DNA of 64,000 nucleotides, taken from contig CM059432.1 in assembly GCA_030390025.1 (NCBI GenBank), forward strand, positions 63,242,001 through 63,306,000, written 5' to 3'. The translations under genes were made by a program, and so were the position numbers. The notes beneath the pieces are model-generated. The model saw only the letters and a program-made list of their open reading frames with translations. It searched no databases and had not been told where the DNA came from. Each line of letters begins with the position of its first letter. Positions within the stretch are counted from its first letter, which is position 1. Positions 1-58,875 of this stretch are shown one piece after another. Origin of the DNA: Squalus acanthias (Eukaryota).

Positions 1-246
1 ATGAGTCTAGGTTCGGATCGGTCATGGCCCTGTGGGTAGTGGAGCGGGCCCAGGGACTGTGTAGCCTGATTCTGCTCCTATTTCGTGTGTGCAATTCTGT
101 TAGATGCAGGAGATGGTTCTGTGATAGATAGTAGATTGGCGGTTAGGATCAGATCAGCCATGATCTTATTGAATGGCGGAGCAGGCTCGAGGGGCCGATT
201 GGCCTACTCCTGCTCCTATTTCTTATGTTCTTATGTATGTTCTTAT
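1..246 (+). mobile_element. Dimeric CR1-3'UTR-derived short retroelement (5' end cut by window edge), inserted in the Harbinger Myb exon
   Basis: A diverged CR1-tail monomer is followed by a canonical CR1 tail (GATCAGATCAGCCATGATCTTATTGAATGG...CTCCTATTTCTTATG repeats). It is the near-identical reverse complement of 33614-33857. Confidence 0.8.
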
Positions 247-1837
247 GTCACAGCCAGCACTGTGGTGTCTAGGTCGGCCATCCAGTGCCAAAAATAGTTT
301 AATGACCTCATACGGCAGGTCAAGGTGAGTGAAGGCTTCAGCAACTGCCATATCCCACCATCTGCACTACAAACCTTACACACTACTCAATGCACCACAC
401 CCCCATCACTCACCTATCAACAATTTCTACCTATCAACACTCACACCTCATAATCAGAGCTTCACTGCACTCTCACAGCCTTACCACTGCTGCAACACTC
501 ACACCCGCATCTCATTCCTTGCACACACTGACAGCTATTCAACTATGGCAGGCACATCACCCAAACACATTGCACCGCACTCACTGACACACTTCTCTTT
601 CTCTTGCAGGCCAAGGTCGCGCATAACCAAAGGGAGCAGCGTGAGACTGGCGGGGGTCAGGCTGACACCCACGACCTCAGCCAGCTGGAGGAGAGAGTGA
701 TGGACATCATTGGGCGGCAGAGCATAGAGGCCGTAGCAACCGGCGAGGTTGAACCTCTTGGGGACAAGAACAGTATGCTCATTCCTAATCCTTCTTCTCA
801 CATCCCACTTTCCCCTCATCCCACAATCTCTTCTCACTTTCAAGCTGCTGATGCTGTATGCATGGATATCTTGCTTAACCCCACCCTCCCATCACCATAA
901 CCCAACTCTTGTGCCTTTCTGCTTTCAGATAATCAGCAACAAGCACTCGAGCAGCCTGTCCCCGAGGTGATACACGAGAGCAAGGGGGGAGAAGAAGAAA
1001 AAGAAGACACAGCGTCTCTGCATCTGTCACGCGAAGACACCAGTTCAGAAACTGGCACTGCGCGGACTTTAGAAGCTAGTGTAGAAGTGGGATCCGCACA
1101 GGGTGAGGCACTGGGCATGAGTGGGCTGCAGCAAGGCCAGGGAGAAAGGGTAGTTCGGGGGCCAGCTCCCCGGAGGGCGAGTTCACGGGCGAGTTCTGCT
1201 GCACAGGACTTAGATGAGGACCTCGAAGGGGGCGTCCACCTCCAACATTGCACGGGGCTCTGCGCAGAGCTTGGAGCCCAGGATTTCCAGGATGGAAATG
1301 ATGGAAGACTCCCGAAGAGACCATGTCGACCCAGACGTGATGGGTGATGTCGTGGCTGTCATTGCAGCACAGGCGGAAGCGACCCACCATTTTAGTGCTG
1401 CAGCAGAAGCGCAGACCGCTCTCATGAAGTCTCAGCTTGATGCCACCTAAGCTCAGACTGCTGCCATCATGGCTGGGTTTACCAGTATCGTACGGGGCTT
1501 GCAGGGTGTCACAGCAGCCCAGCAAGCTGTCCTCCAAAAGATTGCTAGGAATGCTGAGGCGCTGCCCCGGGGGAGTGGCCGTGGGTCTGTGGAGCAAGAA
1601 CCTGCTGTCCTCTCTCAGGATGACAGCATTCCTGCTCCCACCATTGCCACTCCGCCCTTGCCCTTGCCACTGCCTGTCAGCCAGCCAGCCCAGACTGCCG
1701 CCGCCCATGCCAAGGTAGTACAGTCTGCAGCTGAGCCTTCTAGGGCCAGAGCTGCTCGAGGTCGCCCTGCAAGGCCATCTGAAGTGTCCCCCATGCTCCA
1801 CCAGCCCTGCTGCAGCCACTGGTGGAGCACTCCGTAG
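247..1837 (+). pseudogene. Harbinger Myb/SANT-like DNA-binding protein gene, spliced (exon ..324, 610-772, 929-~1837)
   Basis: Exon 1 reads VTASTVVSRSAIQCQK*FNDLIRQVK and ends at a GTGAGT donor. A TTGCAG acceptor leads to AKVAHNQREQRETGGG, then a GTATGC donor and TTTCAG acceptor with consistent phase into the 967 frame. In-frame stops and frameshifts are present. Confidence 0.75.
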
Positions 1838-2042
1838 AAGGCACTAAGAGATCGCACAAGGGTGATTAGTTCATGTCGTTACTGTAAATGTGTGTGATGT
1901 GATTTTTGATCAATTTATTAATTTTGTTTGGAATTTTTTGTGATGTCTCTCACTTCAGTTTTGTGCCCAGGAGGACGCTGTGATATTTCGTGTCAGAGGG
2001 ATGGAATGATGGGGATGTGGTGAGCAACGGGGATCTGAGGTT

Positions 2043-4980: not shown

Positions 4981-6759
4981 TGCTAAGATGCATATAGTTT
5001 GCTTGTCATCCCTCCTGGGGAAAGCATTTTACCTGCATTTGTCATTTCCCTTAGATAATCTCAGCAAAACATGGAACCCATGAGGTAAAAGGAGACCTAT
5101 GTCCTATCACATTGTGGCACCGTGCATCAGTACAAAATGCACTGAGCAACTGTCTCATCTTCAAATTATTTTATTTCATTCACTTTCACCCAATTGATGC
5201 TTCCTGCTGCCACATTCCATGTTTTGAACTGAATCCTTTGCTGCTGAACCTACTAGCCTACCCTCATAGAATTAATTGTCAAAAAAGAAATCTTTGTAAA
5301 CGAGAAAGCTGATTATCATGATACAGAAATACAAAAGTTATATGTGTATTTTCTGATTTGTTATGACTCCAGTCGGATAAACTCAATAATGGTTCAGGTT
5401 ATCTTTGAAGCCTGAGTCTTTTCCATGAGGCAAACTGTCCAAGCGGATGAGATATTAATGTGAGAAATTATAAACATAGTTTGATTTTTCTAAACGAAAG
5501 TAGAGTGATGTGTTTGATTTCCAGCAACATACTGCCATCTTTTAAAGTAAACTCAAACATCCAAATTAAACAAAAACATAAATATTAGCCAGATGTTCTC
5601 CAAGAATTAAATCATTCTTGTCTCAACATTCTCATAAATTAGGAAAGAAATCTTATTTTTAATTGAATGGAGATGAGATCAAGCCAGCTCATGTGCTTTT
5701 TTTTACTGGAGCTGAACTAGAAAGCTGTGTAACTTATTACTTTGATGTCACTGAATCCAATCACGTTAATGTCATATGATTGCAACCATCTTTGGTATGG
5801 GTCACGAGTAGGTCAAACAACTGGAATTGGGTTGGGTTCAGCATCGCCTGAAACAAACTGAAAGCTTCAGTTGTCAGGTTAGTCCGGCAGAGATCAAAGA
5901 AATTCTCATACTCCTCAACTGATTTACTGCGGAGATTATAACAGTTTTGATAAAATATGGATGTCCCTCTTTCACATAGAATCTTTCAAAAGATTTAGAT
6001 ATGTCATTTGTGACACTAAGCAACTTAAAGTCCTCCAAATCTACCGAATATAAATCAGGTCATTTAAAATGGACACAAATTCAAATAGTGATTTATTGAT
6101 GATGGCAAACACAGGAGCTGGAATCATTTCTTTACAATGAAACACAGTACATGCATGTATCAATAGGATATTCAGTGGCTGAGTAGTGGATTATGGGAAA
6201 CACCATCTCATGAGAGTCAGGTGATATTGATAACAGAATGGGCATTGCACACACCGTAACCAGAACAAATTTGCTGAATTACATTAAAAAAAATTAAAAA
6301 CAAGCTTTCCATTCATTAAGATTTTACGACTACCTAGATTTTGCTAAATACTGACATGGCACAGTTAAAACTGACGTGTGAGTCTGCAAATTAATATCTA
6401 AACGTTATTGACTGTTTTTCTCATCGGCAGATTTTCACATTGCAGGCAAAATTGCAGGAAGTTTTCAGTGCTGGTGATTCTCTGTGAGTCGCACGAATTC
6501 TGCAGGAAATGCTGCAGGAGAGGCCATTGTATCTTTCTCAACTAAGAAGTCATCTGTTACGTGGCACAAAGTAGCTGCTGGCATTTGCTCGCCAGCTGAC
6601 AGGTGTTCAGAAACACCTGGCAGGTGCTTTTAACCCACCCTCTGGGAGGCTTGATTAAACTAACTTATAAGAGTTGGAAATCATCCAGAAATGTATTACA
6701 GGAGTTATTAGAAAGGCCAGCAACTACTCCTCAGACTCTTATAGCAAACACACTTGGAG

Positions 6760-7205
6760 TGCTCACTGACCTACATTGTCTCCTGATCCGGCAACGCCTC
6801 AATGTTAAAATTCTTATTCCTGTTTTCAAATCCCTCCATGGCTTTGCCCCTCCCTGTCTCTGTAACCTCCTCCAGCCCTACAGCCCTCCGAGATCTCTGC
6901 ACTCCTCCAATTCTGGCTTCTTGCGCATCCACTATTTTAATCGCTCCACCATTGGTGGCCATGCTTTCAGCTGCCTAGGCCCTAAGCTCTGGAATTCCCT
7001 CCATAAACCTTTCCGCCTCGCTACCTCTCTCTCCTCCTTTAAGAGACTCCTTAGAACCTACTTTGACCAAGCTTTTGGTCATCTGCCCTAATGTCTCCTT
7101 ATGTGGCTCGGTGTCAAATTTTGTTGGATAATGCTCCTGTGAAGCGCCTTGGGATGTTTTATTACGTTAAAGACGCTATATAAATGCAAGTTATTGTTGT
7201 TGTTG
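6760..7205 (+). mobile_element. L2-type LINE 3' fragment
   Basis: Translation LTDLHCLLIRQR..KILIPVFKSLHGFAPPCL..GGHAFSCLGPKLWNSL..SFKRLLRTYF is typical of an L2 ORF2 C-terminus. The tail is GCTATATAAATGCAAGTT(TTG)n. Confidence 0.8.
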
Positions 7206-12311: not shown

Positions 12312-14989
12312 TCACGTTCTATAGCGTGACATGAACCCGATATCCCGATTGAGGCCGTCCTCATGAGTGCGGAACTTGGCTATCAGTTTCTGCTCGATGA
12401 TTTTGCGTTGTCGTGTATCCCGAAGGCCGCCTTGGAGAACGCTAACCGGCTGATCCGAGGCTGAATGCCCTTGACTGCTGAAGTGTTCCCCGACTGGGAG
12501 GCAACCATCCTGCCTGGCGATTGTTGTGCAGTGTCCGTTCATACATTGTCTCAGTGTCTGCATGGTCTCGCCGATGTACCATGCTCTGGGGCATCCTTTA
12601 CTGCAATGTATCAGGTAGACAATGTTGGCCGAGTCACATGAGTATGTACCATGTACCTGGTGGGTAGTGTCCTCACGTGTGATGACGGTATCTGTGTTCA
12701 TGATCTGGCATGTCTTGCAGAGGTTGCCGTGGCAGGGTTGTGTGGTGTCGTGGTCGCTGTTCTCCTGAGAGCTGGGTAATTTGCTGCGAACGATGGTACT
12801 TTTGAGGTTAGGCGGCTGCTTGAAGGCGAGTAGTGGAGGCGTGGGGTTGGCCTTAGCAAGGTGTTCGTCGTCATCGATGACATGTTGAAGGCTGCGAAGA
12901 ACATGGCGTAGTTTCTCCGCTCCGGGGAAGTACTGGACGACGTAGGGTACTCTGTTGGTTGTGTCCCGTGTTCGTCTTCTGAGGAGGTCTGTGCGGTTTT
13001 TCGCTGTGGCCCGTCGGAACTGTCGATCGACGAGTCGAGCGTCATATCCCGTTCTTACGAGGGCGTCTTTCAGTGTCCGTAGGTGTCCATCACGTTCCTC
13101 CTCGTCTGAGCAGATCCTGTGTATTCGCAGGGCTTGTCCATAGGGGATGGCTTCTTTAACGTGGTTAGGGTGGAAGCTGGAGAAGTGGAGCATCGTGAGG
13201 TTGTCCGTGGGCTTGCGGTAGAGTGAAGTGCTGAGGCGTCCATCTTTGATGGAGATTCGTGTGTCCAAGAATGAAACCGATTCTGAGGAGTTGTCCATGG
13301 TGAGTTTGATGGTGGGATGGAACCTGTTGATGCTATCGTGTAGTCCTTTCAGTGATCCTTCGCCGTGGGTCCAAAGGATAAGATGTCGTCGATGTATCTG
13401 GTGTACAGCGTTGGTTGGAGGTCCTGTGCAGCGAAGAAGTCTTGCTCGAACTTGTGCATGAAGATGTTGGCGTATTGGGGTGCGAATTTGGTCCCCATGG
13501 CTGTTCCGTGTGTTTGGGTAAAAAACTGGTTGTCGAAGGTGAAGACATTGTGGTCAAGGATGAAGCGGATGAGTTGTAGGATGGCGTCTGGAGATTGGCT
13601 GTTGTTGGTGTTGAGTACTGAGGCTGTCGCAGCGATGCCGTCATCGTGGGGGATACTGGTGTAGAGTGCCAATACGTCCATCGTGGCGAGGAGTGTTCCT
13701 GGTTCAACTGGTCCATGGGTGCTGAGTTTCTGCAAGAAGTCTGTAGTGTCGCGACAGAAGCTGGGGGTTCCCTGTACGATGGGTTTCAGGATGCCCTCGA
13801 TGTACCCAGAGAGGTTCTCACATAGGGTTCCGTTGCCTGATACGATAGGACGTCCGGGTGTGTTGGCTTTGTGTATCTTTGGGAGGCAGTAAAAGTCTCC
13901 TACGCGGGGAGTACGTGGGATGAGAGCGCGTAGGATGTTTTGAAGGTCTGGATCGAAGGTCTTGATCAGTCTATTGAGTTGGCGGGTGTGCTCTTTGGTC
14001 GGATCTGCGGGTAGCTGTCTGTAGTGTTCCAGGTTGTCCAGTTGTCGGTATGCTTCTTTGCAATAGTCCATTCTGTTCTGTATGACGATGGCTCCTCCTT
14101 TGTCCGCTGGTTTGATGACGATGTTGCGGTTGGTCTTGAGAGCGTGGATGGCATTGCGTTGTGCTCGGGTGACATTCTGGACTGTCTTGTGAGTGCGGCT
14201 GATGAATCTGGCGTTGATGCATTTCCTGACAGCTTGAGCATACATGTCAAGCTTAGGGCAGCGACCCTCCGGAGGGGTCCAATTTGACTCTTTCTTCCTC
14301 GGTTGTAGCACTGCGGTTCCCTCTGTCTGCTGTTCCGGATCATTGATTGTCTCATTGGGTTTGTTGCTGACATCTTGGGATTTGTGGTAGTATTCCCGGA
14401 TCCTCATTCTCCTGATGAATTCCTCTGTGTCTGCCGCGAGACCGATGGGGTCCATTTTGGTGGTGGGGCAGAACTTGAGCCCCAGGGCAAGAACTTCGAT
14501 TTCGTCTGGTTGAAGGGTGTGGTCCGACAGGTTGACGATGGACTTCCCTGTGGTTGCAACCGTGGTACCGGGGGAGGCTTGGTTGCAGCTGGTGGTGATG
14601 CCGAGTTTCTCAAGCTTCCTGTTCTTGATGCGCATGTAGGAAGCATAGTTCCGTTGCCTCGTCTGTTTGGCGGTGTCTCGTAGCTGGTCTGCTGTGCCCT
14701 GAGCACAGGCTGAGAGCATGGACTCTATCTTGGTTTCGAGGTTGCGACGTCTGCTGTACAGCTGGTGTACGAGATGGTTGAGGAGTGTGCGAGAGGTACG
14801 ACGGCAGAGTCTCTCAGCGTAGTCTGTGTTGTATGTCGACTTGAGTGGGTTCGTGATCTGTAGTCCTTTCGGAATCTTGTCTGCTTTCTTGCATCTCTGC
14901 AGATACTTGATGTCTGTGTCAATATGCGCGATCTTCTTGGCGATTCTCTCCACTTTGAGCCGGCAGTTTGCGGTGTCAATAGTGGTCAT
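12312..14989 (-). pseudogene. PLE reverse transcriptase / GIY-YIG endonuclease polyprotein (~890 aa), one frameshift near 13380
   Basis: Motifs KPADKGG, LPKIHK..PGRPIVS, GTAMG and YTRYIDD; then PCHGNLCKTC and IVYLIHC..WYIGET. Comparison with the 17.6-kb copy shows a 1-bp deletion after YIDDI. Confidence 0.92.
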
Positions 14990-17459
14990 GATGCGGAGAT
15001 ATATTCAAGACAGAGATCGATAGATTTTTGAATATTAAGGGAATCAAGGCATATGGAGATAATGCAGGAAAGTGGAGATGAGGAAGAAGATCAGCCATGA
15101 TCTTATTGAATGGTGGAGCAGGCTCGAAGGGCCAAATGACCTACTCCTGCTCCTATTTCTTATGTTCTTATGTTCTTATGAGTAGCTTTAGAAACCTCTC
15201 GTAAACTGGGAGCAGACCCAATAAATTCAGCCTCTTGTGGGCAATTCAAATGTTGCAAATTGAATTGGACCAGTAGACAGAAACCCCACCTCTAGAGCAG
15301 ATTTCATTTTGGGACCAAGACAGAAGTTGTACTCTGTAAACTACCAGTTCCCTGACAAATCAACTGTTCCAGGAGTGTATATGCAATAGCTGGTTCCCAT
15401 TCACTGCTTCCCCCAGCAGCACATTGATCCTGCTGATTGGGCATCAAGGTTCCACCCTACCAGACTGTGACTCCATGATTGGTGTTCTAATTCACTGTCC
15501 CACCATACCAGCTCATGCATATGGTGATAAGTCTTGCAGCGCACCATATTTTACAGTAAAGAAAATGAACAGGCACATGGACACTGCATCGCTGGCCAGT
15601 GCAAGCCTCATTTGCACAGTACAATGATGCACTCATGTCCCATGCTGAATTTCATGTTCTTCTGGTGAGCTCTCCCTGCATTCACTTCGACCACACCTAT
15701 AACTTTTAGGAACATAGGAACAGGAATAGGCCATTGAGCCCCTTAAGCCTGTTCCGCCATTCAATGAGATAATGGGTGATCTGCGACCTAACTCCATATA
15801 TCGGCCTTTGGCGCATATTCCTTAATAATTTTAGTTAACAAAAAGCTATCAATCTCTGACTTAAAATTAACAATTGATCTAGCATCAATAGCCATTTGCG
15901 GAAGAGAGTTCCAAACTTCTACCACCTTTAGTGTGTAGAAGTGTTTCCTAATTTCACTCCTGAAGGGTCTGGCTCTAATTTTTAGAGTCTGCCCCCCAGT
16001 CCTAGAATCCGCAACCAGCGGAAATAGTTTCTGTCTGTCTATCCTATCTGATCCCCTTAATATCTTGAAAACTTCGATCAGATCACCCTTAACCTTCTAA
16101 ATTCTAGGGAATACAACCTTAATTTTTGTAATCTGTTCTGATAACTTAACCCTTCAAGTCCGGGTATCATTCTGGTAAAGCTACACTTTTTAAAATTTGT
16201 TTATGGGATGTGGGTGTCGCTGGCAAGGCCAGTATTTATTGCCCATCTCTAATTGCCCTTGAGAAGGTGGTGGTTAGCTGCCTTCTTGAACCGCTGCAGT
16301 CCGTGTGGTGAAGGTATTCCCACAGTGCTTTAAGGAAGGAAGTTCCAGGATTTTGACCCAGCGACGATGAAGGATCAGCGATATACTTCTAAGTCAGGAT
16401 GGTGTGTGACTTGGAGGGGAACTTGGAGGTGGTGGTGTTTTCATGCACCTGCTGCCCTTGTCCTTCTAGGTGGAAAAGGTCACTGGTTTGGGAGGTGCTG
16501 GCGAAGAAGCCTTGGCGAGTTGCTGCAGTGCATCTTGTAGATGGTACACTCTGCGGCCACGGTACACCGGTGGTGGAGGGAGTGAATGTCTAAGGTGGTG
16601 GATGGGGTGTCAATCAAGTGGGCTGCTTTGTCCTGGATGGTGTCGAGCTTCTTAGGTGTTGTTGGAGCTGCACTCATCCAGGCAAGTGGAGAGTATTCCA
16701 TCACACTCCTTACTTGTGCCTTGTAGATGGTGGAAAGGCTTTGGGGAGTCAGGAGGTGAGACACTCGCTGCAGAATACCTAGCCTCTGACCTGCTCTTGT
16801 TACCACAGTATTTATGTGGCTGGTACAGTTAAGTTTCTGGTCAATGGTGACCCCCAGGCTGTTGATAGTGGGGGATTTAGCGATGGTAATGCCGTTGAAT
16901 GTCAAGGGGCGGTGGTTAGACTCTCGCTTGTTGGAGATAGTCATTGCCTGGCACTTCTGCGGCGCGAATGTTACCTGTGAATGGTGCTGAACACTGTGCA
17001 GTCATCAGCGAACATCCCCATTTCTGACCTTATGTTGGAGGGAAGGTCATTGATGAAGCAGCTGAAGATGGTTGGGCCTAGGACACTACCCTGAGGAACT
17101 CCTGCAGTGATGTCCTGGGGCTTTGATGATTAACCTTCAACCATCACAACCATCTTCCTTTGTGCTAGGTATGACTCCAACCAGTGGAGAATTTCCCCCC
17201 TGATTCCCATTGACTTCAGTTTTACTAGGGCTCCTTGATGCCACACTCGGTCAAATGCTGCCTTGATGTCAAGGGCAGTCACTCTCACCTCACCTCTGGA
17301 ATTCAGCTCTTTTGTCGATGACACCTTCCATCCTTTGCTGATGATTGAGAGTAGACTGATCGGGCGGTAATTGGCCGGATTGGATTTGGCCTGCTTTTTG
17401 TGGACAGAACATACCTGGGCAGTTTTCCACATTGTCGGATAGATGCCACTGTTTTAGCT

Positions 17460-19601
17460 ATGATGTGGAGATGCCGGTGTTGGACTGGGGTGGACAAATG
17501 TGAGAAGTCGCACAACACCAGGTTATAGTCCAACAGCTTTATTTGAAATCACAAGCGTTCGGAGCGCTGCTCCTTCGTCAGGTGAAGTGAAGAGATGCAT
17601 ATAGGCACAGCAGAATGGACTATTGCAAAGAAGCATACCGACAACTGGACAACCAGGAACACTACAGACAGTTACCCGCAGATCCGACCAAAGAACACAC
17701 CCGCCAACTCAATAGACTGATCAAGACCTTCGATCCAGACCTTCAAAGCATCCTATGCGCTCTCATCCCACGTACTCCCCGCGTGGGAGACTTCTACTGC
17801 CTCCCAAAGATACACAAAGCCAACACACCCGGACGTCCTATCGTATCAGGCAACGGAACCCTGTGTGAGAACCTCTCTGGATACGTCGAGGGCATCCTGA
17901 AACCCATCGTACAAGGAACCCCCAGCTTCTGTCGTGACACCACAGACTTCTTACAGAAACTCAGCACCCACGGACCAGTTGAACCAGGAACACTCCTCGC
18001 CATGATGGACATCTCGGCACTCGACACCAGTATCCCCCATGATGACGGCATCGCTGCGACAGCCTCAGTACTCAACATCAACAACAGCCAATCTCCAGAC
18101 GCCATCCTACAACTCATCCGCTTCATCCTTGACCACAATGTCTTCACCTTCGACAACCAGTTTTTTACCCAAACACACGGAACAGCCATGGGGACCAAAT
18201 TCGCACCCCAATACGCCAACATCTTCATGCACAAGTTCGAGCAAGACTTCTTCGCTGCACAGGACCTCCAACCAACGCTATACACCAGATACATCGATGA
18301 CATTTTCTTCCTATTGACCCACGGCAAAGAATCACTGAAAAGACTACACGATAACATCAGCAAGTTACATCCCACCATCAAACTCACCATGGACTACTCC
18401 TCAGAATCGGTTTCATTCTTGGACACACGAATCTCCATCAAAGACGGACACCTCAGCACTTCACTCTACCGCAAGTCCACGGACAACCTCACGATGCTCC
18501 ACTTCTCCAGCTTCCACCCTAACCACGTTAAAGAAGCCATCCCCTATGGACACGGGACACAACCAACAGAGTACCCTACGTCGTCCAGTACTTCCCCGGA
18601 GCGGAGAAACTACGCCATGTTCTTCGCAGCCTTCAACATGTCATCGATGATGACGAACACCTCGCTAAGGCCATCCCCACGCCCCCACTACTCGCCTTCA
18701 AACAGCCGCCTAACCTCAAACAGACCATCGTTCGCAGCAAATTACCCAGCTTTCAGGAGAACAGCGACCACGACACCACACAACCCTGCCACGGCAACCT
18801 CTGTAAGACATGCCAGATCATCAACACAGACACCATCATCACATGTGAGGACACCACCCACCAGGTACATGGTACATACTCATGTGACTCGGCCAACGTT
18901 GTCTACCTCATACGTAGCAGGAAAGGATGCCCCGGAGCATGGTACATCGGCGAGACCATGCAGACACTGCGACAACGTATGAACGGACACCGCGCAACAA
19001 TCGCCAGGCAGGAGTGTTCCCTCCCAGTCGGGGAACACTTCAGCAGTCAAGGACATTCAGCCTCCGATCTTCGGGTAAGCGTTCTCCAAGGCGGCCTTCG
19101 AGACACACGACAATGCAAAATCGTCGAGCAGAAACTGATAGCCAAGTTCCGCACCCATGAGGACGGCCTCAACCGGGATCTTGGGTTCATGTCACGCTAC
19201 ATGTAACCCCACCTGACGTAGAGTCATCCAGACTCGAGTCGTCGTTGACTTGTTCTCTCTGCACAGATGCGGCCGGACCTGCTGTGATTTCCAGCAAAAA
19301 AAGTTTTTTTTTTCCATACAGACCCCAGCATCTGCCACATTGTCTTTGATGTAATGTTTTCCTGACTGACCTGTTTGGACACCATCCACACCTTTGATTG
19401 CCGTGATTATCTCTCTGCTGAGGTGTGATAAAAGGCAGTTAGAAAGATTAACTGTAATCATCTGGCAGTGTTCTCTGACTATATATGCTGTGCCTATATT
19501 CATCTCTTCACTTCACCTGACAAAGGAGCAGCGCTCCGAAAGCTTGTGATTTCAAATAAAGCTGTTGGACTATAACCTGGTGTTGTGCGACTTCTCACAA
19601 G
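17460..19601 (+). mobile_element. Penelope-like family 1 copy, 5'-truncated with an inverted 5' pLTR and an internal deletion
   Basis: ORF 17615-19206 closely matches the 12-15 kb copy. 17500-17612 is the reverse complement of 19488-19599. TSD TGTTTTAGCT at 17450-17459 and 19602-19611; deletion near 18551. Confidence 0.92.
19510..19552 (+). ncRNA. Hammerhead motif (one core mismatch) in PLE pLTR
   Basis: CTGACAA-AGGAGCAGCGCTCC-GAAA-GCTTGTG. The inverted copy at 17551-17585 has CTGACGA...GAAC, so the consensus of the two is an intact core. Confidence 0.65.
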
Positions 19602-25904: not shown

Positions 25905-27235
25905 CAATAGCAAAATACTGCGGATGCTGGAAATCTGAAATAACAACAGAAAATGCTGGAAACACTCAGCAGGCCAGGCAGCATCCGTGGAGAGAGAAAC
26001 AGAGTTAACGTTTTATCTCTGTGATCTTCGTCAGAACTGGAAAAAGTTAGAGAAGTAACAGGTTATAAGCAAGTGCAGGAAAAGCAGGGAGGGGTGGGGG
26101 GGAGACGGGAGGAAGGAACTAAAGGGACAGTCTGTGCTAGGATTGAAGGCAGGAGAGATTAAATGTTGCAAATGGGGTGGCAGAATCATCAACAGCTGCT
26201 GCCTGAAAAAAATGGGGGGGTTTATAGTCTGAAATTGTTGAACTCGATGTTGAGTCCAGAAGGCTGTAAAGTGCCTAATCTAAAGATGAGGTGCTGTTCC
26301 TCGAGCTTACGTTGAACTTCATTGGAACAATGTAAGAGGCCGAGGACAGAGAGGTCAGATAGGGAGTGGAGCAGAGAATTAAAGTGACAGGCGACCGGAA
26401 ACTCGGGGTCACCCTTACGGACTGAACGGAGGTGTTCCGCAAAGCGGTCACCCAATCTGCGTTTGGTCTCCCCAATGTAGTGGGGACCGCATCGTGAGCA
26501 GTGAGTACAGTATACTAAATTGCAAGAAGTACAAGTAAATTGCTGTTTCACCTGGAAGGGGCATTTGGGGCCCTGGACAGTGGGATGGGAGGAGGTAAAA
26601 CGGCAGGTGTTGCATCTCCTGCACTTGCACGGGAAGGTGCCGTGGGGAGGGGAGGGGCTGTTGGGGGTGATTGAGGAGTGGACCAGGGTGTTGCAGAGGG
26701 AGCGGTCCCTTCGGAATGCTGAAAGGGGAGGGGAGGGGAAGATGCGTTTGGTGGTGGGATCACGCTGAAGGTGGCGGAAATGGTGGAGGATGATCCGTTG
26801 AATGTGGAGGTTGGTGGGGTGAAAGATGAGGACAAGGGGAACCCTATCGTGGTTCTGGGAGGGAGAAGGGGTGAGAGCAGAAGTGCGGGAAATGGAACGG
26901 ACACGGCCGAGGGCCACGTCAACCATGGTAGAGGGGAATCCTCGGTTGAGGAAAAAGCAAGACATATTGGAAGCACTGGTATGGAAGGTGGCATCGTCAG
27001 AACAGATGTGGCGGAGACGGAGAAACTGGGAGAATGGAATAGAGTTCTTACAGGAAGCGGGGTGGGAGGAAGTGTAGTCCAGGTAGCTGTGGGACTCAGT
27101 GGGCTTATAGTGGATGTTTGTCGATAGCCAATCACCAGAAATGGAGACAGAGAAGTCAAGGAAGGGAAGAGAAGAGTCAGAGATGGACCATGTGAAGGTG
27201 AGGGAAGGGTGGAAATTGGAAGCAAAGTCAATGAA
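25905..27235 (-). mobile_element. Penelope-like retroelement family 2, 5'-truncated
   Basis: ORF 26222-26965 has PCKCRRCNTC, LVYCTHC..HYIGETKRRLGDRFAEH and LQPSGLNIEFNNFR. 3' pLTR at 25905-26040; homologous to 57335-58875. Confidence 0.9.
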
Positions 27236-28239
27236 AGATATAAAAGCAGTCCTTAAGGTGAATGAGCGCTCTATAAGTTGAATCTCTGCTTATTTCTACC
27301 CATCGGTTCAACCTTTAAACATCAATTTAAACACATCTGGGCCGAGTAGCATCACATCACAATGGGTTATTACTTTTGCCATTGGCGCTGCTGTTCCCGA
27401 TCCAGTGCTATCCTCGCTGCGATGTATTCTAATTATTTTTCCAGCAATTTGTGGCGTGAATTCACCACTGGAGGATCGGGGAGCACAGCGGCCTAACATG
27501 ACGTTCATCACTAATATCACCAATATCGCCATTGCAGCGAATTCTGATGGTCCCACTGGCTAAGAGAGGGCAGTATAGACCCAGAGGTTCCTGGAAACTT
27601 GTGTCATTGGAATGACGTTGGGTTCTACAACGTTGGGTTCATTTTACATCGTAACAGTCCCAAGAATTTAAGATGCAAATGAGTTACGCCATTATTTACA
27701 ACGCGCCATAAATTCCTGGGACATTTCCAACAATACCTTTGCTGAAATTATGCAAAATTGATTATTGTAGTTCCACCACCCAGTTAAGTCAATACCTATC
27801 ACAAATTTCCTGTATTTATATCAGTTTTCTTGTCACAGCCACTTAGACTAAAAAACAATAACACAATAATTCATGAGTTCAAAATAATGATTAAAAATAA
27901 AATCTCTGCTCTTTCGTGCTATTTTTAATTCTTAGCTAAAACCCATCAAACCACTTTTTCTTTGTTATTATGTGTTAGGTTTCGTGTATATTGTGTGCAT
28001 GGTGTACGGCACTGAAGTGCCTGCACATGCCATTGATTAAAGTGATAGTGGGGGGGAGAATTTGTTTTGACTCATTTTCGGGCCTGAAATGGTTGACGTG
28101 CTCACAGTATGCACTGGAAGCTAGAAGCCCAAGCTTGTTGAAAATTGGACCTTGGACCTCATCTGAATGATTCTAGGGAGCTGTGGGCAACTGTCGGGTC
28201 TCCTGTGGCTGTTCACTGGTTTACTTGGTACCAATTTGG

Positions 28240-33342: not shown

Positions 33343-33613
33343 AAAACAAAAATCTCTTGTTACCATATTGCTGACCAGTAGAAACAATCACTCACTATTT
33401 TCCTTATCCTTACCCTTCATAATCTTGAAGACTTCTATTGGTCACTCTTTAACATTCTTAACTTTAATGAAAAAGCCCTAACTTCTTATTTCTTTCTTCA
33501 TAATTGTAACCCCCAAATTTGTGGCAATGCCTCAGTGAATCTACATCCTACCTTTCAGTAATGGGGTCCCAAAACTGCCCACAGTACTCCAACTGTGGCC
33601 TATTTAAGGTCTT

Positions 33614-33880
33614 ACATAAGAACATAAGAACATAAGAAATAGGAGCAGGAGTAGGCCAATCGGCCCCTCGAGCCCGCTCCGCCATTCAATAAGATCATGG
33701 CTGATCTGATCCTAACCGCCAATCTACTATCTATCACAGAACCATCTCCTGCATCTAACAGAATTGCACACACGAAATAGGAGCAGAATCAGGCTACACA
33801 GTCCCTGGGCCCGCTCCACTACCCACAGGGCCATGACCGATCCGAACCTAGACTCATGTCCAAATTCCTGCCCGCTCCCC
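33614..33880 (-). mobile_element. Dimeric CR1-tail short retroelement, 267 bp, complete insertion
   Basis: TSD GTCTT at 33609-33613 and 33881-33885. I saw one substitution versus 1-230 outside the tail repeats. Confidence 0.85.
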
Positions 33881-34010
33881 GTCTTGTACAACTTTAACAT
33901 TATTTCCTTATTTTAATCCACTAGATTGAAAAATCAAGTATTCTGTTTGCCTTACTATAGCTTTATCTACTTGTACTGCCATCTTTAAAGAACTTGTGTC
34001 TCTACACTAT

Positions 34011-34791
34011 GACCCATAATTTGTGGTCAGCGGCGAAGCAAGGGCGCTTGCCGTTGGCCCCCAAGAAAGCTGCCCGCAGATATCTCGCGATCTCTCTGGC
34101 GAGGCGTTTGCCTTTTCCGATGTGTAATTGATTGCAGCGCTGTGAATTGGGGATTCCTAGCAAAGAGCTGCAATGACTTCTACAAGCTGTCTGAGCAGCC
34201 AATCACAATGAAGAATTCTCACAGACAGCAAACCAGGAAATGAGAAGCTGCTTTTATTAGGACTTTAAAAAAATGTTACAGAGAGCAAAATAAAGATTGG
34301 GACTTTCACACGGGGATAAGGTAAAAGCTGAAATATCATCAACAAACTTTAAATAAAAGTAAAACTTTTTGAAAAGTTGAAATTTTTATCATAATGGAGA
34401 AATTTGACATTCCACAAATATAAAAATTAGTTTTTCAGGGCCAGAAAGGTTGTTTAGCAATCAATACACTTAAAACCCCAGTTACATCTATTCCAACAAG
34501 GCTTAAGATTTAATGGGATATTTAACAGCAATATTAACGCGGAAAAGTCCAATTTTTTGTCAGTTTCACTGATTTCGCTGATTGGACTGATTGCTGGCTA
34601 TTGGGGGGGGGGGGGGGGCGGGGGGCTCCACAGCGCAGCCTGTGTCAGAGCAGTGAATGACTGATCGCAAGGTCAGGATTTCTGCGTTTAGATGCGCATG
34701 CGCTAAATCCTGAAGTTGCGGTCAGTTTCAGAGGGGTAATGACGACGAACGCTGACAGTTCGCCGTTATTACCCACCGCAAATTCCGGGCC
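34011..34791. mobile_element. Harbinger-type MITE related to the hairpin family
   Basis: GACCCATAATTTG / CAAATTCCGGGCC ends with TAT/AAT flanks. AT-rich core and a subterminal ATGCGCATGCGC palindrome. Confidence 0.65.
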
Positions 34792-41745: not shown

Positions 41746-42129
41746 TTTGTGGAGGCTGAGTCATTGAATATATTCAAGGCTGAGATGGACAGATATTTGA
41801 ACTACAGGGGAGTCAAGGGTTATGGGGAACAGGCAGAAAAGTGGAGTTGAGGCCAAGATCAGATCAGCCATGATCTTATTGAATGGTGGAGCAGGCTCGA
41901 GGGGCCGAATGGCCTACTCCTGTTCCTATTTCTTATGTTCTTATGTAAAGCTCTATGGAATTGAATTTTAATGGAGGTTCTCCCGAAAGTGCACCATTAC
42001 TTTGGTGGAAGATGCGCGGAAACCCTGGAGAAATGATATAAATGCGCAAATTAGTGGCGCACATGTTTTAGTAGTATTGTCTAAATTTCATACTTTCTTT
42101 TCCAATTTTCTCCCAGTGTCCCATCGCTC

Positions 42130-43784: not shown

Positions 43785-46256
43785 CATGCATTTTTGAGGA
43801 ACTAACCAAGATCTGGTAAGAATTATATATTTGAAGTAAAGTTTTACAGAATGGAATAATTTTCATACTTCAAGTGGATCCTCCTGTGCTTAAGGTAATA
43901 AGGTGCATAGAAAGCGAAATAATGGTGGGTAAGCCAAAGGTTTTCAAGATTGAGTTGAGCCTGAGCTGAGTGAGGGGTCTGGCTTGGCTCTTACAGCCAA
44001 AATGCCAGAGGAGCCAAATTAAACACACAATAAATAAAACAAACTCTGGCAATGATGTTGATTGTGATTGGACCATCCATGGAAGAACATGTGATCATAT
44101 TTAATGGTTGTGCATTTTCACAAAGAACTTGGTTGCCAGGAAATCAAAAACGCACAAGTCAAATCAGGCAGTGAACATTCAAAAACATGTTGGGATAGAT
44201 AGCAAAAGTACACTGATCATATTGTAGGAAAGGACATGGCAACAACTGCTGCACACAGTGATCTGCTGGCTCCCTTAAACTCTGGCTCAGTATTTGCTTC
44301 TATCTCAAGCTGGGCCCAAGCCAGATAACTAACTAACTTGAGCTTCCTTTGACTTGGCCAGGCAAAGTCTTAAATGAATTTTCTTTTACAGTTTTCAATA
44401 CACAGATATAACTCTCATATAACTTCTTAAGAAAATATTGTTCTCTATGTCAGAATAGTGAATGCTATAAAAGTGACTGTATGATAAAGTACAGAATTTA
44501 CAAATTAATAAAAACATTCTTTAAAAACTGGATGATGAATTAAAACTCATTTTAATTTATTATGGAGACACTACAATAGAGACTGAAGGTAATCATTTTA
44601 ATAAAGTTGTACTGGCACATATTATATTAATTTCAAGCACTACATTAGTATCCTTTGCTTTTATTCATGTTTATCTAGGTACTGTGCCAGTATAGTTACA
44701 ATGACACTTTGAGATCGGGCGAGATGTGTTGGAAGTTATTAAAAGTTGGAGTGTAAATATTCACTGCAATTTTCATCACGAATCATAAACCATTGCTGAT
44801 GAGATGAAATATAGGTGCACTTTACAAATAATGTGAACATTAATCAATCCAAATTTGTAAAACAACTAACAAGTGAGGTTGTAAAACTGAATAAAATGTT
44901 GTTTTATGTGTAACTAGTGAGACTTGAGAGGACCTGAGTAAAAGTTTCAGGTTGTGACTGGTGGCTGGAGATCGATGTTTTGTGGCAGTGGCTAAGTGCA
45001 GACCAGTAGGTCCAGGCTCAAGAATTGATTCAAACTCAGTTTGAACTAGTTTGAGCAGCCTGGATTAAAACTTTGCTTTTTTTCAATGCATGCTCATTTA
45101 TTTATTTTTTGTGGCAGGTTTGTTTTGCTAACCTAGACAGACAGCCATGGTTTCTGCTGTGAAAGCTGGTAAAAATGTGATAAAATGATTATGTGGGTCC
45201 GCTTGTGATATTCATGATCTCATGCAATCTAGAATGTGATTTGAGGTTCAGTTTGATTGAGTTAACATTACATTTACTGGCATCTGTGGAATAATGGCCA
45301 TTCAAAATGTAATGCAATGCTAAGTAAATGGAAAGCATCTTGTAACATAATTAACATAGATTAACACTGTTTACGATTCTAACAGATTATGTTGACTTGA
45401 ATGGAGGCAACAGAAAAGATATTTGAAACAAAAAAAGGTTGGGTAACTACAGATCTTATACTTTACTTTTTACTAAAGCCCTGTTTAGATGGAATCATAT
45501 GGGTGGACTGAATGGAATGACCTCATTCATACTGCTGACCCGTTAGGGGCTGTAATCACTTTTTATGAGTAAATGTGCTTGAGGCACATGTCAGATATTT
45601 TATGCATGTATATGTCAGACACTGATTGTATGTACATCCAAAAACATTTATTTTTTTATGAACAAGTATACAGTCTGCTGTTCATTCAAAATCATTTTTG
45701 TTAAATAAAAAATGGAATTATCCAGCAATTCAAATTAAGTAATTTAAATAACATAGCACTGGAGACATTTTCTTAATTCAAATGAAGCAACCTTGCAGTA
45801 TAGAATCATGGAATCATAGAATGGTTACAGCACAGAAGAAGGCCATTCAGCCTGTCGAGCCCGTGCCGACTCTCAGCCAGTCCCACTCCCCCGCCCTTTC
45901 CCTGTAGCCCTGCAATTTTTTTCCTTCAGATACTTATCCAACTCCCTTTTGAAAGATAAGACTGAGTCTGCCTCCACCACCCTTTCAGGCAGTGCATTCC
46001 AGATCTTAACCACTTGCTCCATAAATTTTTTTTTTCTTACGTCGCCTTTTGGTTCTTTTGCCAATCACCTTAAATCTGTGTCCTCTGGTTCTCGACCCTT
46101 CTGCCAATGGGAACAGTTTCTCTCCATCTACCCTGTCCAGACCCCTCATGATTTTGAACACCTCTATCAAATCTCCTTTCAATCTTCTCTGCTCCAGCTA
46201 ACGTAGTACCATTATTCAAGAAGGGTAGTAGGGATAAACCAGGGAATTACAGGCCA

Positions 46257-47558
46257 GTGAGCCTAACATCAGTGGTAGGGAAATTATTGGAAAAAATTCT
46301 GAGGGACAGAATTAGTCTCCACTTGGAGAGGCAGGGGTTAATCAAGGATAGTCAGCATGGCTTTGTCAGGGGGAGATCATGTCTGACCAATTTGATTGAA
46401 TTTTTCGAGGGGGTGACTAGGTGTGTGGATGAGGGTAGTGCAGTTGATGTGGTCTACATGGACTTCAGTAAGGCTTTTGACAAAGTCCCGCATGGGAGAC
46501 TGGTCAAGAAGGTAAGAGCCCATGGGATCCAGGGCAACTTGGCACATTGGATCCAAAATTGGCTTAGTGGCAGGAGGCAGAGGGTGATGGTCAAAGGTTG
46601 TTTTTGTGACTGGAAGCCTGTGTCCAGTGGTGTACCGCAGGGATCGGTGCTGGGACCTTTGCTGTTTGTAGTGTACATTAATGATTTAGATATGAATGTA
46701 GGAGGTATGATCAGTAAGTTTGCAGATGACACGAAAATTGGTGGGGTGGTAAATAGCGAGGAGGGAAGCCTCAGGCTACTGAACGATATAGACGGGTTGG
46801 TCAGATGGGTAGAACAATGGCAAATGGAATTTAACCCTGAAAAGTGTGAGGTGATGCATTTTGGGAGGACTAACAAGGCAAGGGAATACACAATGAATGG
46901 TGGGACCCTAGGAAGGACAAAGGATCAGAGGGACCTTGGTGTGCATGTACATAGATCCCTGAAGGCAGCAGGACAGGTAGATAAGGTGGTTAAAAAGGCA
47001 TATGGGATACTTGCCTTCATTAGCCGAGGCATAGAATATAAGAGCAGGGAGGTTATGATGGAGCTGTACAAAATGCTAGTTAGGCCACAGCTGGAATACT
47101 GTGTGCAGTTCTGGTCGCCACACTATAGGAAGGATGTGATTGCATTGGAGAGGGTGCAGAGGAGATTCACCAGGATGTTACCTGGGCTGGAGCGCTTCAG
47201 CTATGAAGAGAGACTGGACAGGCTGGGGTTGTTTTCCTTAGAGCAGAGAAGGCTGAGGGGGGACCTGATTGAGGTGTACAAAATTATGAGGGGCATAGAT
47301 AGGGTAGATAGAAAGGAACTTTTCCCCTTAGTAGAGGGGTCAATAACCAGGGGGCATAGTTTCAAGGTAAGGGGCAGGAGGTTTAGAGGGGATTTGAGGA
47401 AAAACTTTTTCACCCAGAGGGTGGTTGGAATCTGGAACTCACTGCCTGAAAGGGTGGTGGAGGCAGGAACCCTCACAACATTCAAGATGCATTTAGATGA
47501 GCACTTGAAACGCCATAGCATACAAGGCTACGGACCAAGTGCTGGAAAATGGGATTAG
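46257..47558 (+). CDS. CR1 ORF2 RT domain and C-terminus, uninterrupted 433 codons (5'-truncated young copy)
   Basis: [26 protein letters not shown] and RPQLEYC with no stops, followed by a 3' UTR and a (GACTCTAT)n tail. Confidence 0.9.
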   Translation: MSLTSVVGKLLEKILRDRISLHLERQGLIKDSQHGFVRGRSCLTNLIEFFEGVTRCVDEGSAVDVVYMDFSKAFDKVPHGRLVKKVRAHGIQGNLAHWIQNWLSGRRQRVMVKGCFCDWKPVSSGVPQGSVLGPLLFVVYINDLDMNVGGMISKFADDTKIGGVVNSEEGSLRLLNDIDGLVRWVEQWQMEFNPEKCEVMHFGRTNKAREYTMNGGTLGRTKDQRDLGVHVHRSLKAAGQVDKVVKKAYGILAFISRGIEYKSREVMMELYKMLVRPQLEYCVQFWSPHYRKDVIALERVQRRFTRMLPGLERFSYEERLDRLGLFSLEQRRLRGDLIEVYKIMRGIDRVDRKELFPLVEGSITRGHSFKVRGRRFRGDLRKNFFTQRVVGIWNSLPERVVEAGTLTTFKMHLDEHLKRHSIQGYGPSAGKWD

Positions 47559-47630: not shown

Positions 47631-48523
47631 GGGGGAAAAATTCAGTTGGTTGCGCCTCCCGTTAGCGCCTTAAGAGGGCGCTAATGGGGCGCAAAGCAGC
47701 TAGCGCCCGGGCGCGGCGAAGTTTGCGCCGCTCGCGAAATTAACTAGACATTTTGCGGCGGCGCTAAACACTACTGCCACGATCTCCTGCGCCGGCCGAT
47801 CATGACGTCACTCGAGTGCGCAACGCCCCGGTATCGCCCCGGAGCGGATATTGAGTGGCGCCCCCTGCCTTACCGCCTGACGCTAGCAACGACAGGTTGA
47901 GGGGAGCGTTCTGCAGTCATGAAGGGAAAGGGGGAGCGCTATTTAAAGGTGACCGCTTCCTGCCTTTTATTGTTGGTGCCATTTTTGAACTACGCATTCT
48001 GAGAGAGAGAGGGAGAGACTTCTGGAGAGATTCAATGTTGTGTGAAGGAGTTTTGGATACTGAGCAGCACTTTGCAGGTTCATTTTGATTTGCCATTCCT
48101 TGTATCGATTTAGAAGAGACTGTGGGGGCTGCACTCTGAGCACTTTGCCTGATACTCTCCATTGTTCTTTCCAGCACATTTGATGTGCAGGTCTCTCCAG
48201 GCCGAGATTCAAGGCTGCAATGAGCAGGATGTGGATGGAAAGCAAGATTAACCATCCCCTTTAAGAACTGGCCCGTGCCATTGTGTGTGTGTTCCATTGC
48301 TGACAGACATTACATGAGCTTCGCCAGCGCTCTGAGGTAGCGCCTCGCTCCTCGGCCTTTGCGCCTTAAGACAGGTGTGAAGCGCCTGATTTAGCGCTGC
48401 AATCACCTCCAGGGGCAATAAAAGTGAAGTTTGCAGTCGGTGGCGATAATTAGCGCCAGGCGCTAATCTTTGCGCCCGGCCGATATTTGCGCCCCAAACA
48501 GGGCGCGACTGAATTTTTCCCCC
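47631..48523 (+). mobile_element. Harbinger-type MITE, copy 1
   Basis: TIR GGGGGAAAAATTCAGT / ACTGAATTTTTCCCCC with TSD TAT; many subterminal GCGCC/GGCGC repeats. Confidence 0.92.
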
Positions 48524-48534
48524 TATGACTCTAT

Positions 48535-49424
48535 GGGGGAAAAATTCAGTTGGTTTGCGCCTCCCGTTAGCGCCTTAAGAGGGCGCTAATGGGGCGCAAA
48601 GCAACTAGCGCCCGTGGGCGGTGATGTTTGCGCCGTTCACAAAATTAACTAGACATTTTGCGGCGGCGCTAAACACTACCGCCACGATCTCCTGCGCCGG
48701 CAGATCGTGATGTCAGTCGAGTGTGCAATGCCCTGGTAGCGCCCCGGACCGGATATTGAGTGGCGCCCCCTGCCTTACCGCCTGCCGCTAGCAACGACAG
48801 GTTGAGGGGAGTGTTTTGCAGTCAGGAAGGGACTGGGGGAGCGCTATTTAAAGGCGACCACTTCCTACCTTTTTTTGTTGGTGACATTTTTGCAGCACGC
48901 ATTCTGAGAGAGAGAGAGACTTCTGGAGAGATTCAACGCTGTGTGAAGGAGTTTTGGGTACTGAGCAGCACTTTGTAGGTTCATTTTGATTTGGCATTCC
49001 TTGTATCGATTTAGAAGAGACTGTGGTGGCTGCACTCTGAGCTCTTTCCCATGGCCTCTCCATTGTTCTTTCCAGCAGATTTGATGTACAGGTCTCTCCA
49101 GGCCGAGATTCAAGGCTGCAATGAGCAGGATGTGGATGGAGAGCAAGATCAACCCTCCCCTTTAAGAACTGGCCGGCGCCATTGTGTCTGTGTTCCATTG
49201 CTGACTGACATCACATGAGCTTCGCCAGCGCTCTGAGATAGCGCCTCGCTCCTCGGCCTTTGCGCCTTAAGACAGGTGTGCAGCACCTGATTTAGCTCTC
49301 CAATTACCTCCAGGGGCGATAAAAGCCAAGTTTGCAGTCGGAGGCGATAATTAGCGCCAGGCGCTAATCTTTGCGCCCGGCCGACAATTGCGCCCCAAAT
49401 GGGGCGATACTGAATTTCTCCCCC
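48535..49424 (+). mobile_element. Harbinger-type MITE, copy 2
   Basis: Same TIR (one mismatch) and TSD TAT; colinear with copy 1 but with many substitutions. Confidence 0.92.
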
Positions 49425-57088: not shown

Positions 57089-57334
57089 CAGTTTCTTTTT
57101 TTTTACATGTTATATTAGTTGTGAGATAATGAGGGTAGTTAAGGCCTAGTCCTCGGTATATCCAGTATTTTAGAATGGATTTCCAATCAATATGCCCAGA
57201 AGGAGGCTTAGCTGTACACACATACTAGTGCTGCAAGTTTCCACACCAAGTGAGTGGCTTTTCATTCAAGGTGATAAGTTTAACTAAGAGCTCAGAAGAC
57301 CAATCGTTGACACTTAGACTTGAGGAAGGGGTCA

Positions 57335-58875
57335 GAGAACATTCTTTGTTCCAGTCCTACTCAGGTCCCCTCCCTCATCTCTTTTTCCGGTACATTGATG
57401 AATGTATCGGTGCCGTTTCCTGCTCTCACCCTGAACTAGAATATTTCACTCACTTCGCTTCCAATTTCCACACTTCCCTCACCTTCACATGGTATATCTC
57501 TGACTCTTCCCTTCCCTTCCTTGGTACATCTCCGACTCTTCCCTTCCCTTCCTCGACTTCTCTGTCTCCATTTCTGGGGATAGGCTATCGACAAACATCC
57601 ACTATAAGCCCACTGACTCCCACAGCTACCTGGACTACACTTCCTCCCACCCCGCTTCATGTAAGGACTCTATTCCATTCTCCCAGTTTCTCTGTCTCCG
57701 TCGCATCTGCTCTGCGATGCCACCTTCCATACTAGTGCTTCCGACATGTCTTCCTTTTTCCTCAACTGAGGATTCCCTTCTACTGTGGTTGACGTGGCCC
57801 TTGACCGTGTCCATTCTATTTCCTGCACTTCTGCTCTCACCCCTTCCCCTCCTTCCCAGAACCACAATAGGGTTCCCCTTGTCCTCACCGTCCACTCCAC
57901 CAGCCTTCACATTCAACGGATCATCCTCCGCCATTTCCGCCACCTCCAGCATGATCCCACCATCAAACACATCTTCCCCTCCCCTCCCCTTTCAGCATTC
58001 CAAAGGGACCGCTCCTTCCGCGACACCCTAGTCCACTCCTCTACCACCCCCAACACCCCTTCCCCTTCCCACGGTACCTTCCCATGCAAGCGCAGGACAT
58101 GCAATGCCTGCCCTTTTACCTCCTCCCTTCCCACTGTCCAGGGCCCCAAATACTCCTTCCAGGTGAAACAGTGATTTACTTGTACTTCTTGCAATTTAGT
58201 ATACTGTATTCGCTGCTCACGACACGGTCTCCTCTACATTGGGGAGACCAAACGCAGATTGGGTGACCGATTTCTGGAACACCTCCGTTCAGTCCGTAAG
58301 TGTGACCCCGAGCTTCTGGTCACCTGTCACTTTAATTCTCTGCTCCACTCCCACTCTGACCTCTCCGTCCTCGGCCTCTTACACTGTTCCAACGAAGCTC
58401 AACATAAGCTTGAGGAACAGCACCTCATATTTCGATTAGGCACTTTACAGCCTTCTGGACTCAACATCGAGTTCAACAATTTCAGACCATAACCTCTGAC
58501 CCTATTTTTTTTCACATGGCAGCTGTTGATGATTCTGCCATTCCCAGTTACGCCTCATCTAGAGTCATCTTTTGTTTCTTAACTTGTCCCATTAACATCT
58601 CCTTTTGCCTTGCACCATCATCTCTTTTGTCTTTTAATCTCTCCTGCCTTCCATCCTATCACAGACCTTCCCTTTTGTTCTTTCCTCCCCCCTTTCACTG
58701 CACTTGCTTAAAAATCTGTTACATCTCTAACTTTTTTCCAGTTCGGACAAAAGGTTATCGACCTGAAACGTTTACTCTGTTTCTCTCTCCACAGATGCTA
58801 CCTGACCTGCTGAGTATTTCTAGCATTTTCTGTTTTTATTTCAGATTTCCTGCATCTGCAGTATTTTGCTTTTGT
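57335..58875 (+). mobile_element. Penelope-like family 2, 5'-truncated, decayed
   Basis: FFRYIDE, YIGETKRRLGDRF and LQPSGLNIEFNNFR; 3' pLTR; ~30-bp internal tandem duplication near 57492-57552. Confidence 0.9.

Follow-up and report, generated by a model that had tools for sequence, protein, structure and literature searches.

A 267-bp insert lies on the minus strand at positions 33614-33880 of the window (the whole 64,000-nucleotide stretch of DNA that we analyzed), between two copies of the 5-bp sequence GTCTT at 33609-33613 and 33881-33885. Read in its own direction, it runs from the end of a CR1 ORF2 through a diverged 3' UTR (UTR-1), a spacer and a canonical 3' UTR (UTR-2) to an octamer tail (Table 1). 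The host sequence, itself a decayed CR1 fragment, reads continuously (LYKTLNRPQLEYC) once the insert and one GTCTT are removed, and retaining both GTCTT copies shifts its frame. The joined flanks match 46995-47304 at 62% (E=3e-13). We aligned 4 of 24 public runs to 33400-34100 (X7, X3, X15 and X11); all of them consist of assembled contigs, with no raw reads, and X7 and X3 were flagged as possible sources of the window. A contig of X7 carries the empty site: it joins 33608 to 33881 and skips 272 letters (267+5, with 5 ambiguous). Because the host CR1 fragment regains a continuous reading on excision and the empty-site contig skips exactly the insert plus one duplication, the boundaries of the insert are exact. 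The target site duplication (TSD) GTCTT had been proposed in an earlier note made from the sequence alone, and the copies on both sides together with the empty site in X7 bear it out.

Table 1. Features of the insert, its insertion site and related CR1 sequences in the window
Feature	Positions	Strand	Basis or remark
TSD (5 bp), 3' side of insert	33609..33613	.	Empty-site joint in X7
3' octamer tail, (TTCTTATG)x3 plus T	33614..33638	-	Sequence
UTR-2: canonical CR1 3' UTR, hairpin 33642-33680	33639..33717	-	Alignment; 78/82 letters identical to 41857-41938
Spacer, 50 nt; a 4-nt shorter variant exists	33718..33767	-	Contig variant
UTR-1: diverged CR1 3' UTR, degenerate octamer at end	33768..33853	-	25/86 aligned letters differ from UTR-2
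UTR-1 hairpin: outer stem of 8 bp retained, including G-U pairs; changes in inner stem and loop	33780..33817	-	Predicted fold only, -18.5 versus -23.3 kcal/mol (UTR-2)
Last 8 codons of CR1 ORF2 (GERAGIWT) plus TGA stop (33854-33856); truncation point 33880	33854..33880	-	Register and motif shared with 41794-41850 and 15025-15081
TSD (5 bp), 5' side of insert	33881..33885	.	Contig alignment extends to 33882 in all 4 runs
Host of insertion: remnant of an old, decayed CR1 ORF2, interrupted by insert	33400..33960 (extent approximate)	-	Joined-flank match
Second copy, same subfamily; 5' part beyond window, 3' flank different	1..248	+	Alignment to 33614-33880
Ordinary single-UTR CR1 end (comparator); ORF2 stop 41848-41850	41794..41946	+	Same register and motif
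Second ordinary single-UTR CR1 end (comparator)	15025..15180	+	ORF2 end register plus tail

The second copy (1-248, plus strand) is cut by the window start and begins at element base 24. It is 98% identical to the insert (33614-33880, minus strand), with a single substitution (window position 33675 versus 183) and a 4-nt extra tail unit, as the earlier note had stated in describing the element as present twice with one substitution outside the tail. At 33675, the difference makes the UTR-2 of the insert match UTR-1, and approximately 98% of the depth in X7 and X15 carries the other letter; a private mutation or local conversion is possible. Copy 1-248 is followed by gene-like sequence (249-3172 region) which we take to be of the Myb/SANT type, with a DDE_Tnp_4 transposase ORF at 2306-3172 (minus strand), and the copy was probably inserted into a Harbinger-type transposon. 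The two single-UTR comparators read FLNIKGIKAYGDNAGKWR-stop (15025-15081) and YLNYRGVKGYGEQAEKWS-stop (41794-41850).

The 5' end of the insert

The GERAGIWT-stop motif that closes the coding part of the insert also ends an ORF with a Pfam RVT_1 domain (46158-47555). Contigs run beyond 33880 in all four of the runs aligned to 33400-34100. Behind 33882, one common loose end was seen in 22 contigs of X7 (agreement 0.89) and in single contigs of X3 (53 nt) and X15 (10 nt), as read from the 21 loose ends listed out of 472; these contig tallies refer to the pieces listed, beside which there are 40,291 further contig pieces. Records 6 and 8 of X11 extend 41 and 61 letters past the aligned part. Thirty upstream letters (of at least 53) read FLEVKGIKG on the strand of the element, in register with the first 27 nt of the insert. 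They match the CR1 ORF2 ends of the window in the expected register at 18/30 and 16/30 letters, compared with 5/30 for the real flank, and the 18/30 match ranks in the top 10 of approximately 128,000 positions. The loose ends of X7 and X3 differ at one letter, in a third-codon position at which Gly is kept. Relative to the previous bin, the depth on 33880-33882 was equal in X11 and X3, 89% in X15 and 50% in X7 (within the bin-to-bin spread of X7), and no common start or end at 33880 was found among the contig ends listed for the four runs. Positions 33881-33882 are common to the target and to the upstream sequence of the element, giving a 2-nt microhomology.

Since the upstream letters and the start of the insert read as in-register ORF2, the insert is the end of a LINE cut eight codons before the stop, and position 33880 is this truncation point and not a fixed start of the element. 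Copies extending into CR1 ORF2 had been named beforehand as the observation that would speak for an ordinary truncated LINE, and they were found in part: the upstream letters shared in three runs are ORF2 codons. A protein search with a four-row alignment of the CR1 C-termini in the window, a weak query, gave 189 candidates, none with E<=1. As a separate observation, a predicted hairpin at 33845-33869 (minus strand) would place the ORF2 stop codon in its loop; the fold depends on the derived letters 33851-33852.

Neither a tRNA nor a known RNA family was found at the 5' end. The only tRNA that ARAGORN called in the window lies away from the locus, at 6229-6318, and no Rfam family over 33400-34100 was better than E=3.4, in agreement with the earlier note, which saw no tRNA or 5S head; the 5' end is ORF2 sequence. 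The fold of the whole element gave z=-2.0, with 6 of 200 shuffles as good, and we claim no special structure for it.

With good probability, the insert belongs to a CR1 subfamily that has two tandem 3' UTRs and is a copy truncated at its 5' end; its assignment to CR1 is based on the C-terminal motif and the tail. The four features of CR1 copies that we looked for are all present (a hairpin-plus-octamer tail, an ORF2 C terminus with stop before the 3' UTR, a 5' end that is a truncation point, and a short TSD), and the two SINE features (a Pol III head, and a unit of constant length with a common 5' end) are both absent. The insert is a real feature and an ordinary 5'-truncated CR1 insertion; the doubling of its 3' UTR, with conservation that is asymmetric between the two units, makes it a modest variant of a known LINE. 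It gives no evidence of a new promoterless SINE class. The earlier note had left two options, of which the second, a young CR1 truncated at its 5' end and carrying a duplicated UTR, is supported by the upstream ORF2 continuation in the public-run contigs. The first, a very recent 267-bp SINE-like parasite made only of LINE tail, is largely refuted, as copies extend upstream into CR1 ORF2 and there is no defined 5' end at 33880. The composition given there for the 267 bp was correct for the tandem diverged and canonical UTRs and the 50-nt spacer and incorrect for the first 27 nt, which are the end of ORF2 and not UTR.

The subfamily's putative ORF2 is represented here by its last eight codons and the 30 upstream letters only, and this short reach accommodates an alternative that we consider unlikely, namely, a longer nonautonomous element, either a CR1 with an internal deletion or a SINE whose head lies further upstream, in which the ORF2 end and both UTRs are retained and which would borrow the reverse transcriptase (RT) of the dominant CR1 families through UTR-2. 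UTR-2 is approximately 95% identical to the tails of other families, which makes mobilization in trans possible, and bipartite nonautonomous LINEs and SINE tail exchange are documented in the available part of PMC5786205. However, the ORF2 end reads in register without interruption, and it has kept its conserved stop while the adjoining UTR-1 drifted by approximately 29%, which suggests coding constraint; moreover, 5' LINE parts in SINE bodies are reported in that part of PMC5786205 only for the RTE and Vingi clades. A 267-bp SINE-like unit consisting of two CR1 tails only, with a fixed 5' end at 33880, is highly improbable: the clean TSD at both ends, the G-rich start and the near-identical copies would suit it, but all four runs continue past 33882 (three with identical letters), depth is kept at 33880-33882, and the start is coding sequence without a Pol III head.

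Distribution and age of the family

Public runs were searched with 16 sampled words from the diagnostic part of the element (33700-33880). All 16 words were present in 15 of the 24 listed runs and at least half of them in 18 of the 24; X19 and X20 (shares of 0.25 and 0.19) were left out of the counts. The 18 runs with at least half of the words represent eight coded organism labels plus one metagenome. Nine of these runs are possible sources of the window, and the other nine come from five studies plus one more, with four labels. In X7, the summed contig depth was 319,000 to 883,000 on the diagnostic part, 20 to 51 on the unique flank and 6 to 12 million on the shared tail; summed contig depth is not a copy number, and we use it only against the notion of just two copies. 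The double-tail family is thereby suggested to be a minority CR1 family. The X7 depth of 319,000 to 883,000 also contradicts the possibility, named in the earlier note as one that would refute its reading, that only these two copies exist. The spacing of just 33 kb between the copies in the window might suggest that a single chance chimera was duplicated locally or spread by gene conversion, with no replicating family involved, but this is already refuted by the empty site in X7 and the presence in many runs (all 16 sampled words in 15 of 24, with the X7 depth set against 20 to 51 on the unique flank), and the copies have different 3' flanks and the insert has its own TSD.

The flank of the X7 empty site agrees with the window at all but 1 of 220 letters, and the filled site was in no listed X7 piece (55% of the run read). 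The insertion at 33614-33880 is young. The empty site may be a polymorphism within one species, X7 being a possible source of the window. The family is not newborn, as older subfamilies and several organism labels attest. "Very recent," the wording of the earlier note, therefore suits this insertion, with its empty site, and does not suit a family with diverged subfamilies under several labels. With an insertion that varies in presence and absence, the family could yield population or species markers.

Contigs of X11 (organism G) cover 180 nt of UTR-1 and spacer with 0 differences, at a summed depth of approximately 250 versus 0.4 to 5 million on the shared tail. The majority letters of X11 in the canonical tail are different ones, and the unique flank is uncovered; low-copy shared ancestry, transfer and contamination are all possible. 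A metagenome-contig match to the element (an exact 22-mer, 1 match) was dismissed as chance, lying inside a bacterial gene region without further similarity, and an exact 22-mer scan of viral contigs gave 0 matches. No claim of transcription is made from X15, which consists of contigs and is merely presumed to be RNA.

The doubled 3' UTR and its possible origin

Over 115 alignment columns, the first 113 nt of the insert are 68.7% identical to the ordinary CR1 end (41824-41938; E=1.5e-11), and the local score of this first monomer was 97, whereas 1,000 base shuffles averaged 28 and reached 51 at most. The first monomer had been described as colinear with the ordinary CR1 end but heavily substituted, and these values confirm it. 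For the spacer, no significant match was found within the window (best E=0.14), and its derivation from a decayed ORF2 end was unsupported against four window stretches (p=0.23 to 0.75).

Nine variant sites in UTR-1 and the spacer were seen among the contig variants listed, and all six that lie inside UTR-1 restore the UTR-2 letter. The chance expectation of the UTR-2 letter is approximately 0.10 to 0.15 per site, with the sites nonindependent and no sharing of haplotypes implied. One X11 contig, with 8 letter differences and a 4-nt gap, represents a second subfamily, and single contigs in X15 and X3 cross UTR-1, the spacer and part of UTR-2 with 0 to 1 differences. Because six of six listed UTR-1 variants restore the UTR-2 letter, UTR-1 appears to be drifting; older masters appear to have had a UTR-1 closer to UTR-2, with UTR-2 being held. 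Full release of UTR-1 may be doubted, as its 8-bp outer stem is still predicted to fold. Both UTRs start with TAGG and the copy at 41851 starts with CAAG; this difference, of two letters only, suggests that the donor of the second UTR belonged to the same lineage or to a closely related one. A joint of 33710 to 33859 in X7, considered as a single-UTR sister with the same ORF2 end, was found in one contig with a side of 22 nt and was rejected as unreliable.

We also noted an excess of A-to-G changes on the sense strand of UTR-1 (33768-33853, minus strand), with 10 of 27 changes relative to 41851-41938 and 7 of 23 relative to UTR-2 (p=0.005 and 0.02 among transitions, post hoc). RNA editing fixed in the master and strand-biased mutation are both possible.

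The junctions, the TSD, the empty site, the upstream continuation and the anatomy are observed directly, and we infer the enzymology (from CR1/L2 biology) and the gain of the tail. For the 5'-truncated CR1 copy that we favor, a CR1 endonuclease would have nicked the old CR1 fragment, and target-primed reverse transcription would have begun at UTR-2, the distal tail with its hairpin and octamers, and ended eight codons into ORF2. The 5' end would then have joined through the 2-nt microhomology, leaving the 5-bp TSD. Before this, an ancestral master would have gained 50 nt and a second UTR at its 3' end. The most probable origin, to which we give even chances, is readthrough: the master's transcript would have run past its own tail into the flank and on into a short piece of a closely related CR1 lying downstream. 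A template switch during reverse transcription seems less probable, and an internal tandem duplication is the least probable of the three. UTR-2 would have taken over recognition and priming and stayed canonical, and UTR-1, once released, would have drifted from master to master. Our tentative proposal, about which we are somewhat doubtful, is that a long-lived, still-active coding CR1 lineage switched its RT-recognition site by adding a second tail and not by replacing the first, that every copy still carries the two states, and that graded subfamilies record the decay of the old tail with an A-to-G excess.

If a second tail was indeed added and the first kept, the family would be a natural experiment on the 3' nucleotides that the CR1 RT needs and would exemplify a route by which a LINE takes over the tail of a relative. 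If the master is autonomous, UTR-1 and UTR-2 offer a paired comparison of released and constrained sequence in one element, which would reveal the hairpin and octamer positions needed for stringent 3' recognition.

Known elements and other repeats in the window

Published systems are compared here as far as the available parts of the cited papers describe them. CR1-group elements make up 22 to 34% of elasmobranch genomes (PMC13343379), and CR1 copies are mostly heavily 5' truncated (PMC4316615). In amniote CR1, the RT has been suggested to recognize the hairpin and octamer of the 3' UTR (PMC4316615, PMC8665684). The insert resembles the vertebrate CR1 LINEs of these two papers in its ORF2 end, 3' UTR hairpin, octamer microsatellite and heavy 5' truncation. 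It differs in having two tandem UTRs and a 50-nt spacer, whereas the CR1 descriptions known from these parts have a single hairpin plus microsatellite; the octamer is TTCTTATG here, and the published hairpin and octamer descriptions (PMC4316615, PMC8665684) concern amniotes. We found no CR1 with a doubled 3' UTR in the literature as screened by title and start of abstract, a scope outside which most subscription papers and Repbase Reports fall and which does not imply absence from print. The supplement of PMC13343379 holds CR1 consensus sequences that may bear on the novelty of the double tail.

The HE1 SINE and HER1 LINE are a known pair of sharks and rays (Table 1 of PMC3747384) and likewise use a CR1-type tail for mobilization. 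HE1 has a tRNA head and a V domain, unlike the insert, in which none was found, this comparison being by description only. The doubled tail also recalls SINE tail exchange (PMC5786205), in which the LINE-derived 3' part is replaceable and an old remnant can be left (IdioSINE2), and Bov-A2, a dimer of LINE-derived units (PMC5786205). In contrast to IdioSINE2 and Bov-A2, which are noncoding RTE-derived SINEs, the host of the tail here appears to be a coding CR1, with the new tail appended behind the whole old UTR. The zebrafish LINE ZfL2-1 has 5-bp TSDs and 5' ends joined by microhomology or extra nucleotides (PMC4245944), and the insert shares the 5-bp TSD and a truncated 5' end joined by microhomology; ZfL2-1 was assayed in cultured cells and is not CR1 proper, so the likeness is an analogy only.

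Several other repeats were noted in the window. The tRNA-like sequence called by ARAGORN at 6229-6318 (minus strand) has a stop anticodon and adjoins the end of a LINE-like ORF (6600-7088); it is probably a SINE head or part of a tRNA-headed element. Two near-identical (94 to 96%) inverted retroelement copies with long RT-like ORFs, presumably Penelope-like, lie at 12315-15004 (minus strand) and 17591-19203 (plus strand), and another similar retroelement family is present at 26222-27289 and 57229-58492. Finally, 47631-49205 contains a direct repeat with a spacing of approximately 900 nt and an identity of 89 to 93%.
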